Shown here piece by piece: positions 36,001 to 39,000 of a stretch of DNA of 64,000 nt. Source of the stretch: Endomicrobiales bacterium. GTDB taxonomy: Bacteria; Elusimicrobiota; Endomicrobiia; Endomicrobiales; CAWCFT01. Where the stretch lies: assembly GCA_963794945.1 (NCBI GenBank), contig CAWCFT010000001.1, forward strand, positions 352,001 to 416,000, written 5' to 3'. Numbering within the stretch: the stretch's first letter is position 1; each line of letters starts with the position of its first letter. A program made the position numbers.

Positions 36001-39000
36001 AAACCATGGCAGATGAAGTACGGATGATCAAGTTAAGCCAAATTGTTGTGCCGGCGCATATGCGCAAGCATAGCCCTGAAAAGACGGCCGAACTGGCTAA
36101 GGATATTAAAGAGCACGGCCAGCTTCAGGATGTAGTTATCACACCTATGGGGGATGGAAATTTTGAGCTTTTGGCTGGCGCCAATCGTTATGAGGCCATG
36201 AAACTAAACGGCGCGGACGAACTCCGGTGCCTGGTCAAAGAGAACGTTTCACCGTACGAAAGGTCATGTATTACCCTGGCAGAGAATCTCAAGCGGGAGG
36301 ACGTCTCCCCTGTAGACCTGGGGTTTGAGCTAGACAGGGCCATGAAAACCGGCAACAAAACCCAGGAAGAGCTGGCAAAAGACCTGGGTGTGACGCAAGG
36401 CTATATAAGCCAATATGTGGTAACTACTGATCTTTCTGAGCCTGTCAGGGAAATTATTAAACGTTTAATAATTGGCATAGGCATCATAAATCAGATAGCC
36501 CGCCTGGCTGGTGACGAGGCCAAAATAGCCATGCTTGAAAGGTGCGAGAAAGAGGGCCTTTCAGTAAAACAGGTTGAAATTTTAGTCAATAAAGCGTTAG
36601 CAGCTTCGCCCAGCCCCGCCGGTCAGGCTGAGGCAGTCAATAAAACTGATGGCGGGACAGACCCAAAGCCCAAAAAGGCAGGCAAGGGCGGAAAGGGCCA
36701 CGCAGGGGATGTCCGCATAGTTAAGACAGGCAAAGTTATATGCCTGCAATACTTCTTCAATGAAGGCACTCCCCCGGATGCCATCGCCAAACCCGTAACA
36801 AACAGGTACCAGCAATGGTTTGATGAGCAAGCCCAGCCAAAACCTGATCTCAAGGCCCAAAAGGCGCAGCTTCGCAAAAGCGAAAAGGAAACCGCTGCTA
36901 AGATAGCCAATGTTCAGAAACTTTTAAAGTTAGCGCAGGACCATGACAAAGGATTGGAAAAGGCAGGCCGTGACAGGACTGCCAGCCTGAAAGAAGTAGA
37001 GGACTTAAAGGCCGAACTTCAAACGTTGAAGTCACAGATCCGCCATGGAGGGGCAAATAGTAAACCCAACAAGCCAACACCGCAAGCCCCTACCCAGGCT
37101 CAAATAATGGAACAAGCTAAGAAGCTCAAAGAAGGCGGCCTGGGCGCAACTGTAGCCCAACTTGAATCTCAAATTGCTCAAGCGAAAAAGAGCCTTGAAG
37201 CTCCCGGCATAACCGACGCGCAAAAGGCCGGGCTAAATATGGCCATTCAAAATCTTCAGTCACAGCTTGATGCGCTAAGGAAAGACAACAATACAAATCC
37301 CAATTTCCAGATCCCAAAACAAAACGATAATAAATCCTCGCCCCTTGCGGGTAAGACTTTGGACCTTGAGGGCCAGACCGAAGGGCCCGAAAAGGAAGAG
37401 GGTAAGGGTGAGGGGGATGTTCTGGCGAACGTTGAAGACCAGAAAAAGAAAATGCTTGACTTGATAAACAGCGGCCGGATGTCACCTGAGGATATGGCAA
37501 ACGTAAAATCGCAGTATGAGGCCGCCATACCCCAAACCCAGCAGGATCTTGCTAAGCCGGAAACTAATGAAGCCAAAGCCGCCTATCTGAAAGCATGGAT
37601 ACAGATGATGCAGGAAGTAATCGAAGCGATCAAAAAAAAGTTGAGTGGGCAGTGAGCATAGCAGATTTTTGACTAATGGTATGAATGTTATGCAAAAAAA
37701 AGAATTAAATGATTATTTAAATAACCTTAAAAAAAAGCACAACCTAAAAGAATGTTTTGCTCTAAACGCTGATTGTTCAGAAAATATCATTCAAGCGCAT
37801 TCTATACAAAATAACCGTATTTTAAAAAGAATATCTAAAGATGGTTTAATATTATATTTTGGGAAAGGCGATATTGATCGAGAAAATATGCAACCAAAGC
37901 AATTTGGCCGCAAAACCACATCGACATTTACAGGGTTTTGTGGTTATCATGATCAGAGAATATTTAAGCCAATTGACGACTTCGACTATGAGCAAGGAAA
38001 CGAGGAACAAGAATATTTGTTTTCCTATAAAGCTCTCGCCAAGGAATATCATACGAAGGCTTGTGCATTGTTTGTTGCGAACGAAATACTTGAGAAAAAG
38101 GAACTACCCAATTTCGATTATGAAACATATTATTGGTATATGGTTGGCACAAATAGGTCTTATGATCAGTTGTCGAGAATGCGTATTGCCTTTAATAAGA
38201 ATCTAGAAAGAAAACGATTTTACAAAATATTCACAAAAAGAATAGTTTTTGATGAGGTTTATCCGTTAGCTGTTAGTTCAATGATTTCTTTATCAACTGA
38301 TTTTCAGGGCAATAAAATAAACGATTTAGCGAATATGAAAAAAGATATTTTGCCAATATTTGTGACTATATTCCCTCAGAAAAATAAAACACACATACTT
38401 ATTCAATGCTTAAAAAAGGAAATAAATATATTTAACAAATTATTTAAACAATTTGATCAACCCCTGAATGACTTAAAGCCGAAATTATCTATGTTATTGT
38501 TAACTTACTGTGAAAATATGGCTATCTCTCCATTCCATTGGGACAAACTTTCAAAAAACCAACAAAATTTATTTGTTAGTGGTTTTTTGGAAAGCACTTT
38601 AGATTATACTGAAATTCAAAATTACAAGAAATATGAACAATGTAATTTATTTAACACGTGAATTGTTCCAGATTTAACTAGTTGTATAAATGGGGACGGC
38701 TCCAATTAATGTATTAAATAGGGACGGTTCTAATTAAAATATGAACCATGCCAGCCCGCCTAGGCGGATCTTCGACTTGACTTGTTGCTCTTGATGAAAC
38801 AATCTATAGTTCTACGAGGATAAAAGAAGTGCGGGATGTACACGCGACAGATTGAATATTTAGTAGAAATTATGTAATATTATTTATCAAGATCATAGTC
38901 GCAAAAGGAGAAAATCTATGCGTACAATTAAACTGCTCATAACAACGGCACTCATGGTATTTACGGCCTGGCTTTTGGTGGTAAAGAGTTCTCGGGCCGC

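Follow-up and report, generated by a model that had tools for sequence, protein, structure and literature searches.

Locus and domain layout

The gene discussed here lies between recG and coaD of an Endomicrobiales bacterium, inside a window of 64,000 nucleotides (the whole stretch of DNA analysed), and its coordinates and those of its surroundings are collected in Table 1. Besides the gene itself, the insertion in which it sits holds a lipocalin gene, a gene for a zeta-toxin-like P-loop protein, a 50-aa ORF, a 338-aa orphan gene, a flavodoxin gene, and a 108-aa membrane ORF. Elsewhere the gap between recG and coaD measures 36 nt (genome G065), 220 nt (G151), or 1.3 kb (G119). The REP-like family that supplies the two arms bounding the insertion has 11 BLAST matches and 68 core matches in the genome. 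For the 338-aa gene directly downstream, no family was found in Pfam, NCBIfam, or PADLOC, and a protein-cluster search returned only clusters named 'hypothetical protein'.

Table 1. Positions of the orphan parB-like gene, its parts, and its surroundings (window coordinates)
Feature	Position	Strand	Remarks
Lineage-specific insertion, 5.96 kb	34088..40046	.	Between recG (ends 34087) and coaD (starts 40047)
REP-like element, left arm of 56-nt inverted pair bounding the insertion	34197..34252	.	82% complementary to right arm
Upstream 191-aa Zeta_toxin/AAA_33-like P-loop gene	34973..35548	+	Pfam Zeta_toxin 5e-11
Candidate operator, near-perfect palindrome AGTTGTTTACAA-T-TTGTAGACAACT	35948..35972	.	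33 nt before the target ATG
Shine-Dalgarno AGGAGGG of the target	35990-35996
Target gene, 549-aa orphan ParB-like protein, head clade B	36006..37655	+	G000:C1:388006-389655
ParB_N (ParB/Srx) nucleotide-binding fold, residues 1-97	36006..36296	+	Pfam, alignment, pLDDT >90, Foldseek
HTH_ParB DNA-binding domain, residues 98-215	36297..36650	+	Box III ENLKR (residues 93-97) at border; recognition helix GYISQYV
Strand-strand-helix unit, residues 237-276	36714..36833	+	Position of the C-terminal dimerisation domain of canonical ParB
Helical tail, residues 282-427	36849..37286	+	AF2 pLDDT 90-98
Predicted disordered linker with in-frame copy of a dispersed DNA repeat	37323..37424	+	Encodes SPLAGKTLDLEGQTEGPEKEEG
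C-terminal three-helix module M1, residues 469-546	37410..37643	+	Alignment A1; AF2 pLDDT 89-97
Downstream 338-aa gene	37645..38661	+	GC about 0.33; 11-nt overlap with target end if GTG start
REP-like element, right arm of 56-nt inverted pair	39893..39948	.

The reading frame exists as the genome-wide survey's note had described it, and both Pfam domains score above their cut-offs: ParB_N reaches 38.0 bits (cut-off 26.3) over residues 20-95 and HTH_ParB 43.5 bits (cut-off 22.6) over residues 98-197. The same holds for the NCBIfam model TIGR00180, with 72.7 bits against a cut-off of 58.45. The AF2 model has a mean pLDDT of 84.4, rising above 90 for residues 1-215, and a Foldseek search with it yielded 37 PDB matches at E ≤ 0.001, headed by Noc (7nfu, E 2.7e-12), ParB (6sdk and 6t1f), and KorB (8qa9). 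By sequence, the closest solved structure is also a Noc (7ng0, E 1.3e-19). We conclude that this is a genuine ORF of the ParB/Noc superfamily, whose product, as judged from sequence and model together, has a predicted ParB/Srx fold followed by a helix-turn-helix domain.

Behind these two domains, the AF2 model places strands at residues 237-241 and 244-248 and a helix at 257-276 (pLDDT about 80-88). In alignment A2, canonical ParBs have their ParB_C stretch at the place of this unit; ParB_C/PF23552 has no Pfam match anywhere in the protein, the presumed dimerisation unit included. What follows is a tail of about 270 mostly helical residues that ends in the module M1. Its first part is modelled as a long helical hairpin (282-348) and further helices (364-427), the latter carrying the motif L..PG[IL]T[DE]A.K..L...IQ..Q, and it is common to the paralogs on contig C9 and at C2:123696 (69-81% DNA identity). 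In the linker between this part and M1 the pLDDT falls below 50 (residues 430-461), and the DNA repeat contained in it recurs with 83-92% identity over 51-77 nt at C17:530-606, C2:73391-73460, C2:74692-74750, C6:4405-4454, and C4:199587-199650.

An old family in a few related lineages

The gene is one of many. Eleven orphan copies had been counted before, a number that proved too low: a six-frame search with PF02195 (E ≤ 0.01) gives 18 matches in 17 ORFs, namely, one canonical parB and 16 orphans, and BLAST with the paralogs adds a divergent copy (C16:44087-45520; Pfam ParB_N E 0.017) that this search alone recovered. The genome thus has 17 orphan loci and one canonical parA-parB pair. The paralogs are mutually 20-60% identical. 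Three of the 17 are broken, so that single copies are dispensable: those on C8 (the split copy reported earlier, with 172 aa continuing in a 406-aa ORF), on C17, and at C1:22816, whose tail continues in C1:22596-22799.

That ParB_N matches are few elsewhere in the phylum holds for 199 of 200 other genomes, which have 0-5 at E ≤ 0.001. It does not hold for G181, a genome from a different family of the same order, which has 15 orphans and 15 such matches vs 16 here; the swarm is therefore not peculiar to this genome. In a third family, two genomes have three copies each. On a tree of the heads (the ParB-like N-terminal parts), we recover the three subgroups of the genome-wide survey's note as three clades, plus a divergent sub-branch. 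Copies from the two rich genomes interleave on it and form six well-supported one-to-one pairs (13 changes of genome label are needed), with branch lengths similar to that of the canonical ParB pair. Most of the expansion is therefore older than the split of the two lineages, and the picture of an expansion on one small chromosome has to give way, on these sequence comparisons, to that of a family of some age that only a few lineages of one order possess. It is very seldom met in public data: 1.84 billion entries hold 18 representatives (E ≤ 1e-30), and searches of 5.8 billion proteins gave 10 and 13 clusters. The dN/dS of one recent head duplicate is 0.20. A literature search, judged by its listings, brought up no work on a genome with a ParB family of many members, nor on ParB in Elusimicrobiota.

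Nucleotide pocket and independence from ParA

ParB is the founding CTP switch, and work on the proteins of M. xanthus and C. crescentus has assigned roles in CTP hydrolysis to the glutamine of box I and the glutamate of the GERR motif. In the target, box II (canonical GERRxRA) reads GANRYEA, an alteration that had been spotted before, and box I, which falls three residues short of its counterpart in canonical ParB, lacks the Gln. The loss is not confined to the target: the GERR glutamate is retained in 8/9 clade-A heads but in 0/9 of clade B, to which the target belongs, and 0/18 of clades C and D, and no clade-B head (0/9) has the box-I Gln. Among the Foldseek matches of the target are PDB entries with titles naming the variants E93A (7o0n) and Q52A (7bnr). 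G58, R61, and N94, on the other hand, are invariant in 24 aligned proteins (alignment A2), and motif reading finds R61, E93, and N94 retained in the target.

Since both hydrolysis residues are missing, the canonical CTP-hydrolysis cycle is probably absent in the target, but the protein may still bind a nucleotide, given that it has retained Glu93-Asn94 and Arg61, the phosphate-binding residue. The earlier suggestion of CTP-gated clamps is thus doubtful, going by these residues, for the target and for most copies. Neither sequence nor AlphaFold3 is a reliable predictor of nucleotide specificity, according to the preprint 10.1101/2025.10.10.680097.

No ParA-type ORF was found within 7 kb of the target. 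The claim that none of the orphans has a ParA neighbour stands: the single ParA-type gene of the genome (C3:22445; AAA_31, 1.6e-67) adjoins the canonical parB, and three further AAA_31 matches lie in ORFs of 646-743 aa that have no ParB-like gene within 40 kb. In line with this, the ParA-activating peptide [LIV]G[KR]G[LIV] occurs in 0/36 orphan heads (target included) vs 5/5 canonical ParBs.

Near-constant recognition helices and exchanged tails

Within a clade, the recognition helix of the HTH domain is near-constant (Y[IV]SQY[VI] in clade B, QVRRY[IL]K[VI]A in clade C). The notion that each paralog recognises its own site therefore finds little favour in the sequences, which vary in the tails instead. 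These tails differ in a peculiar manner, as modules have been exchanged between head clades at 77-85% DNA identity. The M1 region of the target, for example, is 84.7% identical over 202 nt to that of the clade-A paralog on C4, and M1 is 80.5% identical to that of C8. Two further pairs cross clade borders as well: C1:74871 (clade B) and C2:77284 (clade C) are 84.9% identical over 529 nt, and C16:74930 (clade C) and C2:158570 (clade A) 79% over 181 nt. Between heads of different clades, blastn gives no match. The dN/dS of the shared tail modules ranges from 0.05 to 0.66. The tails are mosaics that have been exchanged between clades and are kept under purifying selection.

M1, the last 80 residues of the target, is common to clade-A paralogs and also ends three small non-ParB proteins. 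Its carriers form only 10 clusters among 5.8 billion proteins, and outside this genome it was found on the clade-D heads P0019 and P0020. For a small M1-bearing protein, the AF2 model has a mean pLDDT of 59 and no PDB match at E ≤ 0.001 in Foldseek. We considered these small proteins as headless ParBs and rejected the idea, because an hhalign comparison of their N-terminal part with the ParB-like middle unit gave a probability of 0.6%. A two-copy complex prediction for self-association of M1 gave no answer (score 0.00) and is evidence neither way.

There has indeed been a radiation of ParB/Noc-like proteins that stand alone, have no ParA, and differ in their C-terminal extensions. Its main peculiarity, absent from the earlier description, is the exchange of tail modules between clades and their sharing with non-ParB proteins.

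A palindrome upstream of the gene

A near-perfect palindrome of 25 bp, with arms that pair at 11/12 positions, follows the promoter region of the target and precedes its ribosome-binding site (Table 1). No second copy turns up in the genome, even with up to 6 mismatches. It is conserved upstream of 0/6 clade-B genes examined in G181 and G119, and the palindromes found upstream of other paralogs are unrelated to it. A 7-mer enrichment over 35 orphan upstream regions yielded only Shine-Dalgarno-like words; AAATTGT reached a p of 5e-4 in these regions before correction for multiple tests. A separate candidate binding site, the hairpin CCCCTCTT-N-AAGAGGGG, was set aside: only 4 of its 27 sites coincide with the start of a ParB-like gene, and we read it as a REP-type element.

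Relation to known ParB-like proteins

Noc, the nucleoid occlusion protein of Bacillota (TIGR04285; PDB 7nfu, 7ng0, 7ol9), carries an N-terminal amphipathic helix that targets it to the membrane. It derives from a duplication of ParB, acts without ParA, and combines a ParB_N with an HTH domain; in this it resembles the target, of which it is the best match in both sequence and fold. Unlike Noc, however, the target scores only 92.6 bits with TIGR04285 (E 2.5e-26; cut-off 315), begins its ParB_N strand at about residue 4 and thus lacks an N-terminal membrane-binding helix, and reads GANRYEA in box II where Noc has GERRWRA. Its 270-residue helical tail has no counterpart in Noc, which moreover is a single gene beside parAB rather than one of a family of 17.

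KorB (plasmid RK2) and VirB (Shigella) are ParB-fold regulators without a ParA that act on promoters via operator-like palindromes. To our knowledge, the ParA-independent offshoots of ParB known so far (Noc, KorB, and VirB) are single genes. KorB (8qa9) is among the fold matches of the target (E 2.5e-8, rmsd 3.9 over 213 columns); the KorB domain PF08535 has no Pfam match in the target and reaches 21.2 bits, below its cut-off of 22.3, in the paralog on C9. The genes of the orphan family differ from those of KorB and VirB in being chromosomal, in having no KorA-like partner gene, and in the target's missing hydrolysis residues. PMC10770331 presents VirB as a switch that depends on CTP.

With the canonical ParB of the same genome (C3:23337-24206, beside parA), the target shares the order ParB_N, HTH, and, going by model and alignment, a strand-strand-helix unit, as well as G58, R61, and N94. 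It departs from it by the absence of a ParA neighbour, of the LG(R/K)GL peptide, of the box-I Gln, and of the GERR Glu, and also by its extra tail and its place in an accessory islet. The ParB of PRTRC systems is no closer relative by its model (TIGR03734, 57.1 bits, cut-off 278.6). Main-text passages of 10.1101/2025.10.10.680097 define orphan ParBs as homologs outside parAB without the ParA-binding motif, and these passages do not describe a single genome that holds many family members whose tails were swapped between clades. The words 'copies', 'per genome', 'coiled', and 'Elusimicrobi' are absent from the main text of that preprint.

What the orphans may do

Taking all this together, we read the target as a genuine non-canonical member of the ParB/Noc/KorB group that works without ParA, not in chromosome segregation but in regulating or organising, locally and in the manner of KorB, VirB, or Noc, the accessory DNA around it, and we hold this reading to have about an even chance of being right. 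In mechanistic terms, the protein would bind a palindromic DNA site as a dimer. The best candidate for such a site is the 25-bp palindrome that covers its own promoter and occurs only once in the genome, and binding there would make the gene self-regulating, as we propose. The coiled-coil tail and the terminal module would contact other proteins. Across the paralogs, the class of DNA site would depend on the head clade, and the partner on the tail.

The location of the genes can be described more plainly than their role. All four loci tested (4/4) are multi-gene insertions into gene orders that are conserved in other families, a result that tells location (accessory) and not function, because any lineage-specific gene looks inserted when compared with genomes that lack it. 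An all-against-all BLASTP of the ORFs within 7 kb of 17 ParB_N loci brought up no recurring partner gene beyond generic methyltransferase, GNAT, and sensor families. Nor do the ortholog pairs of the two rich genomes show synteny within the 2-3-kb G181 loci (short contigs), parA-parB excepted. With neither a recurring neighbour nor ortholog synteny, what speaks for the orphans as regulators of their neighbours is position.

The same insertions are the starting point for another explanation, namely, that integrated mobile elements carried the orphan genes in as cargo or left them behind as relics (partition proteins of plasmids, ICEs, or phages, or KorB-type regulators), and that the genes have no role for the cell. 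The target's insertion is bounded by inverted REP-like copies, insertions were seen at every locus tested, defence genes and an IS110 transposase are found among the neighbours, 3/17 copies are broken, and the survey preprint 10.1101/2025.10.10.680097 reports orphan ParBs to be common on mobile elements. Against it, neither 95 neighbouring ORFs nor the target's own neighbours include integrase, relaxase, replication, conjugation, or phage structural genes, that one IS110 transposase being the only exception, and no gene recurs beside the copies. The six ortholog pairs with branch lengths like that of the canonical ParB and the signs of purifying selection also stand against this view, and the rarity of the family in public data fits poorly with a spreading element. 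We therefore regard this explanation as unlikely, without calling it negligible.

Alternatively, the orphans could be Noc-like organisers or tethers of the nucleoid that occupy scattered chromosomal sites and whose tails link DNA to the membrane or a scaffold. This would agree with the best NCBIfam and structure matches, with tails that are modelled as long coiled coils with conserved end modules, and with one recognition helix per clade, the pattern to be expected where one set of sites serves a whole clade. It agrees less well with a score far below the Noc cut-off and with the want of an N-terminal extension able to form a membrane-binding helix. Furthermore, no repeated candidate site was found (the target palindrome is unique and the upstream regions share no motif), and the genes sit in accessory islets instead of near the replication origin or rsmG. 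Overall, we consider this decidedly unlikely.

A role in defence or conflict, in which the orphans would act as sensors, regulators, or DNA-marking partners of adjoining restriction or abortive-infection genes, is suggested by the company that some of them keep. As had been reported, several copies lie near REP-like repeats and defence genes: five of 17 orphans have a defence-family gene at most two genes away, which, as a raw count, does not by itself show an enrichment. These neighbours are a Type IIG restriction-modification gene (C8, 4.7e-255), a Type III Mod (1.3e-125) with Res in a three-gene insertion in the deo operon (beside the clade-D copy C16:44087, the whole cassette spanning C16:44087-49907), AbiLi (2e-48) with PDC-M38B (C2:77284), PDC-S23/S05 (RhuM; C1:22816, 4.9e-56), and HEPN_AbiU2 (C4, 5.7e-13). 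Two further orphans have a gene for a KAP NTPase or a zeta-toxin-like protein next to them. Yet these neighbours are all different, 10/17 loci have ordinary neighbours only, and defence genes cluster in variable regions anyway. The target itself has a single weak PADLOC match (E 2e-4), to the ParB-like end of the methyltransferase model MTase_II. For these reasons we rate a defence role as very unlikely.

Finally, although the bin is estimated to be 85.9% complete and 5.9% contaminated, it is hardly conceivable that the swarm stems from contaminating contigs, which had been a concern, or from collapsed repeats or other binning and assembly faults, given copies on 10 contigs of 66-484 kb with a GC of 0.44-0.48, paralogs too divergent to be collapsed repeats, tail modules and REP elements common across contigs, and a matching set, orthologs included, in the independent genome G181.

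Returning to the reading of local regulators or organisers of accessory DNA, it can be extended to the family as a whole, in a form that is speculative and, as a package, rather improbable. The family would then be a combinatorial system of address times adaptor, in which a few head classes, each with one class of DNA site, are recombined with a pool of exchangeable tails that also occur on small headless proteins. The outcome would be a chromosome-bound network that marks, silences, or insulates horizontally acquired islets, a ParB-based counterpart of control by H-NS/VirB or of the KorB type, evolved in one order of Elusimicrobiota and binding nucleotide without the canonical CTP-hydrolysis cycle.

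Significance

Should the function turn out to be ordinary autoregulated repression, the family would be a curiosity of gene-family evolution. Two distantly related genomes have each kept about 16 orphan ParB copies since before their lineages split. These copies offer a natural panel in three respects: how the DNA specificity of the ParB head diversifies (in few classes, not one per gene), what role the ParB fold takes once its hydrolysis residues are gone, and how cargo or partner domains get attached and exchanged. In addition, that they turn up again and again in accessory and defence islets hints at a connection, open to test, between ParB-like proteins and the way in which cells deal with foreign DNA.

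Identity of the target gene

The product of the target gene carries the Pfam domains ParB_N (residues 20-95) and HTH_ParB (residues 98-197), which together form its head and score 38.0 and 43.5 bits against cut-offs of 26.3 and 22.6, respectively, and it passes the generic ParB model TIGR00180 of NCBIfam (72.7 vs 58.45). Among solved structures, Noc (7ng0, E 1.3e-19) and Spo0J/ParB come closest in sequence, with KorB more remote. An AlphaFold2 model made from a 24-sequence alignment (mean pLDDT 84.4; residues 1-215 above 90) was matched by Foldseek to Noc 7nfu (E 2.7e-12), ParB 6sdk and 6t1f, and KorB 8qa9. 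The genome-wide survey's note had called the gene ParB/Noc-like, and Pfam, TIGR00180, solved-structure and fold matches all agree. The N-terminal peptide [LIV]G[KR]G[LIV], taken as the ParA-binding motif in a preprint (10.1101/2025.10.10.680097), occurs in 0 of 36 orphan heads vs five of five canonical ParBs. The identity of the target as a ParA-independent member of the ParB/Noc/KorB superfamily is secure.

Copy number, head clades, and distribution

The assembly (2.90 Mb in 19 contigs, with completeness estimated at 85.9% and contamination at 5.9%) yields 18 six-frame matches to PF02195 at E<=0.01, located in 17 ORFs, namely one canonical parB and 16 orphans, i.e., ParB_N-type genes without a ParA partner. 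Paralog BLAST adds a 17th, so that the earlier count of eleven orphans was too low; 14 of the 17 loci look intact and three are broken (see the table). The sole near-match in the assembly to the canonical parS consensus has one mismatch, and no other site lies within two mismatches.

In a maximum-likelihood tree built on residues 1 to ~215 of 41 proteins (leaving out the two C17 pieces, the C8 tail piece, an 83-aa fragment from genome G119, and the methyltransferase fusions of genome G018), the heads sort into three clades. Clade A and the canonical ParBs are sister groups (support 98/93), clade B, with the target, is the next to join these two, and clade C stands separate (100/100) and contains a long-branched pair named D.

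Among 200 other genomes of the phylum, 199 have zero to five ParB_N matches at E<=0.001 (none in 15), so the contrast claimed earlier holds in part. The swarm is, however, not peculiar to this genome, the only representative of its family among those compared: G181 (2.5 Mb, same order, different family) has 15 matches vs 16 here at the same threshold, and its loci comprise a canonical ParB plus 15 orphan ORFs. A third family is represented by G119 and G169, each with three orphans. In G018, the additional matches are of another kind, ParB_N-methyltransferase fusions. G119 also holds a clade-B gene split over two reading frames, 43 kb downstream of its recG and probably a pseudogene.

With the target as query, 5.8 billion proteins gave 10 clusters (among them two paralogs from its own genome and P0001, a close ortholog from elsewhere), and a clade-C member gave 13. 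Among 1.84 billion proteins, the target found 18 representatives at E<=1e-30; for comparison, the whole ParB superfamily has 24,576 at E<=0.001. The orphan family is very rare in public data.

Features of the target, its locus, and related loci (unprefixed coordinates, window; C, contigs of the genome under study)
Feature	Position	Remarks
Target ORF	36006..37655 (G000:C1:388006-389655), +	open, 549 residues
Strand-strand-helix unit	residues 237-276	after HTH; aligns with dimerisation domain of canonical ParBs
Long helical hairpin	residues 282-348	pLDDT 93-98
Further helices	residues 364-427	AlphaFold2 model
Disordered stretch	residues 430-465	AlphaFold2 model
Three-helix module M1	residues 469-546	pLDDT 89-97
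338-aa gene	37645-38661	no family; GC ~0.33 vs ~0.47 in window
Zeta-toxin/AAA_33-like P-loop gene, then 50-aa ORF	34973-35707	191 aa
coaD-pilB-pilT-pilC block and following genes	40047-50382	same order in G065, G119, G151
Dispersed repeats (examples)	34161-34252; 39893-39948; C1:76448; C2:123651	
Canonical parB	C3:23337-24206	directly behind the only ParA gene (AAA_31, 1.6e-67)
Near-match to parS	C18:67991	different contig from parAB
17th orphan	C16:44087-45520	477 aa, more divergent; tail match only; Pfam ParB_N E 0.017
Cassette with 17th orphan	G000:C16:44087-49907 (L077 7088-12907)	Mod 574 aa, Res 908 aa (ResIII), clade-D ParB-like 477 aa
Broken copy	C8	172 aa, continues in 406-aa ORF
Broken copy	C17	92 aa, continues in 186-aa ORF
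Broken copy	C1:22816	last 67 residues in separate ORF
Small M1 proteins (L049, L050, L051)	C6:1145-1852; C6:116276-116884; C15:90136-90783	202-235 aa
IS200/RAYT-like Y1 transposase ORF	L058 2676-3254 (G119:C22)	192 aa, judged by eye from motifs
Split clade-B gene	G119:C22:300579-301179 (L061 4579-5179)	

Nucleotide pocket and candidate DNA site

An alignment of 24 proteins shows no variation at G58, at N94, or at R61, the Arg that ends the GERR box, and hardly any at E93. The GERR Glu and the box-I Gln are the residues tied to CTP hydrolysis in canonical ParB, and mutants Q52A and E93A are named in PDB titles among the target's fold matches. The Glu is kept in eight of nine clade-A heads, 0/9 of clade B, and 0/18 of clade C/D; the Gln in 9/9, 0/9, and 17/18, respectively. 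The target reads GANRYEA in place of the GERR box. Judging from these residues, clade B may still bind a nucleotide, and a canonical CTP-hydrolysis cycle is unlikely there.

The recognition helix of the HTH is nearly constant inside a clade (Y[IV]SQY[VI] in B, QVRRY[IL]K[VI]A in C) and differs between clades. This pattern points to a small number of DNA site classes and away from the earlier proposal of a separate site for each paralog. A palindrome, AGTTGTTTACAA-T-TTGTAGACAACT, in which 11 of the 12 arm positions pair, lies 33 nt before the target's start codon, downstream of the likely promoter and ahead of a strong Shine-Dalgarno sequence. By rough estimate, ~0.004-0.01 such palindromes would be expected by chance in 250 nt, and this one is unique in the genome with six mismatches allowed. 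It was found before 0 of 6 clade-B genes of G181 and G119, and 35 upstream regions have no motif in common. The palindrome is a plausible candidate for an autoregulatory operator.

Tail modules

Behind the head, the target continues into a mostly helical tail (see the table), of which residues 237-276 have no match to the Pfam ParB_C model. Across clades, the heads have diverged beyond the reach of blastn, though their tails share segments: the target (B) is 84.7% identical in DNA to the copy on C4 (A) over 202 nt and 80.5% to that on C8 (A) over 231 nt, C1:74871 (B) and C2:77284 (C) share 84.9% over 529 nt, C2:77284 and C8 84.4% over 269 nt, C16:74930 (C) and C2:158570 (A) 79% over 181 nt, and C2:123696 (C) and C9 (B) 76.9% over 238 nt. 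The tails are mosaics of segments common to different head clades. In G181, a separate set of end modules recurs across clades A, B, and C. Shared tail segments have a dN/dS of 0.05-0.66 (0.20 for the heads of a recent duplicate), so that the tails are coding sequence under selection.

M1 also forms the C-terminus of three small proteins, in which an unrelated alpha/beta N-terminal part and a basic linker precede it; these have no Pfam or PADLOC family match, and a model (pLDDT 59) gave no fold match. Among 5.8 billion proteins, M1 occurs in only 10 clusters, including two clade-D ParB-like and two small metagenome proteins.

At least three dispersed repeat families exist in the genome, two of them in frame within ParB-like tails. 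The target's disordered stretch holds one (encoding SPLAGKTLDLEGQ; at least five other places, 83-92% identity), and copies of a second REP family (core TGTCAT[CT]TCGA, 68 matches genome-wide) lie inside the tails of two other paralogs. A hairpin, CCCCTCTT-N(3-10)-AAGAGGGG, has 27 sites, often clustered, four of them at starts of ParB-like genes.

Genomic setting

Between recG and coaD, a stretch of 5.96 kb holds the target; these two genes are 36 nt apart in G065, 220 nt in G151, and 1.3 kb in G119. Inverted 56-nt copies of a REP-like element delimit the stretch, which encodes a lipocalin, a zeta-toxin-like P-loop protein, the target, the 338-aa protein, a flavodoxin, and a small membrane ORF. 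The 338-aa gene and the target may share a transcript (with a GTG start they overlap by 11 nt); its look-alikes are unnamed ~330-aa proteins, mostly from Pseudomonadota. The zeta-toxin-like gene and the 50-aa ORF may form a toxin-antitoxin-like or kinase pair. The Y1 transposase ORF of G119 sits at the same intergenic spot, which suggests a hot spot for insertions. The coaD-pil block is a useful synteny anchor for this order.

Three further loci, compared in the same way, are all multi-gene insertions: C16:44087 and its Type III Mod and Res neighbours separate deoB from deoD, genes that adjoin each other in four of four relatives; the stretch around C1:337640 spans 3.6 kb here and 1.2 kb in the single relative that has the ortholog; and C16:74930 lies in 6.8 kb, where the flanking genes are 0.3-1 kb apart in three of four relatives. 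The insertions mark an accessory location, which is partly expected for any gene missing from the compared genomes. No genes recur beside the paralogs.

Age of the family and competing readings

We favour, at about even odds for the statement as a whole, a ParA-independent superfamily member serving as a local regulator or organiser of accessory DNA. The protein would sit as a dimer on a palindromic site, its binding perhaps modulated by nucleotide and not by canonical CTP hydrolysis, and its helical tail would contact partners.

That the copies are relics of mobile elements, as the survey's note had allowed, is unlikely. In the tree, copies of the two swarm genomes interleave, with six one-to-one pairs of starred support, and the genome label has to change 13 times. 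Recent duplications are few (C2:77284/C2:123696 and a matching pair in G181), and branch lengths of the orphan pairs resemble those of the canonical ParB pair. The expansion is therefore mostly older than the split of the two families, the copies having been inherited and kept since, which argues against decaying mobile DNA.

A Noc-like organiser is rather improbable; the target falls far from the Noc-specific NCBIfam model (92.6 vs 315), as it does from PRTRC-ParB (57.1 vs 278.6). A defence-linked function seems quite improbable. For five of the 17 orphans, a member of a defence family is found no more than two genes away (a raw count): Type IIG R-M (4.7e-255), Type III R-M with Mod by PADLOC (1.3e-125), AbiLi/PDC-M38 (2e-48), RhuM/PDC-S05 (4.9e-56), and HEPN_AbiU2 (5.7e-13). 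A KAP NTPase or zeta-like gene is next to two further orphans, and the remaining ten have ordinary neighbours. The C16 cassette may be a functional unit of restriction system and ParB-like protein. An artefact by contamination, also raised earlier, is hardly credible, as the G181 copies interleave as one-to-one pairs.

Orphan ParBs as such are already known and reported as common (10.1101/2025.10.10.680097). The novelty lies in how large and old the family is, in its small number of conserved head classes, in the hydrolysis residues lost from most copies and, most of all, in tail modules having been exchanged among clades and with non-ParB proteins.
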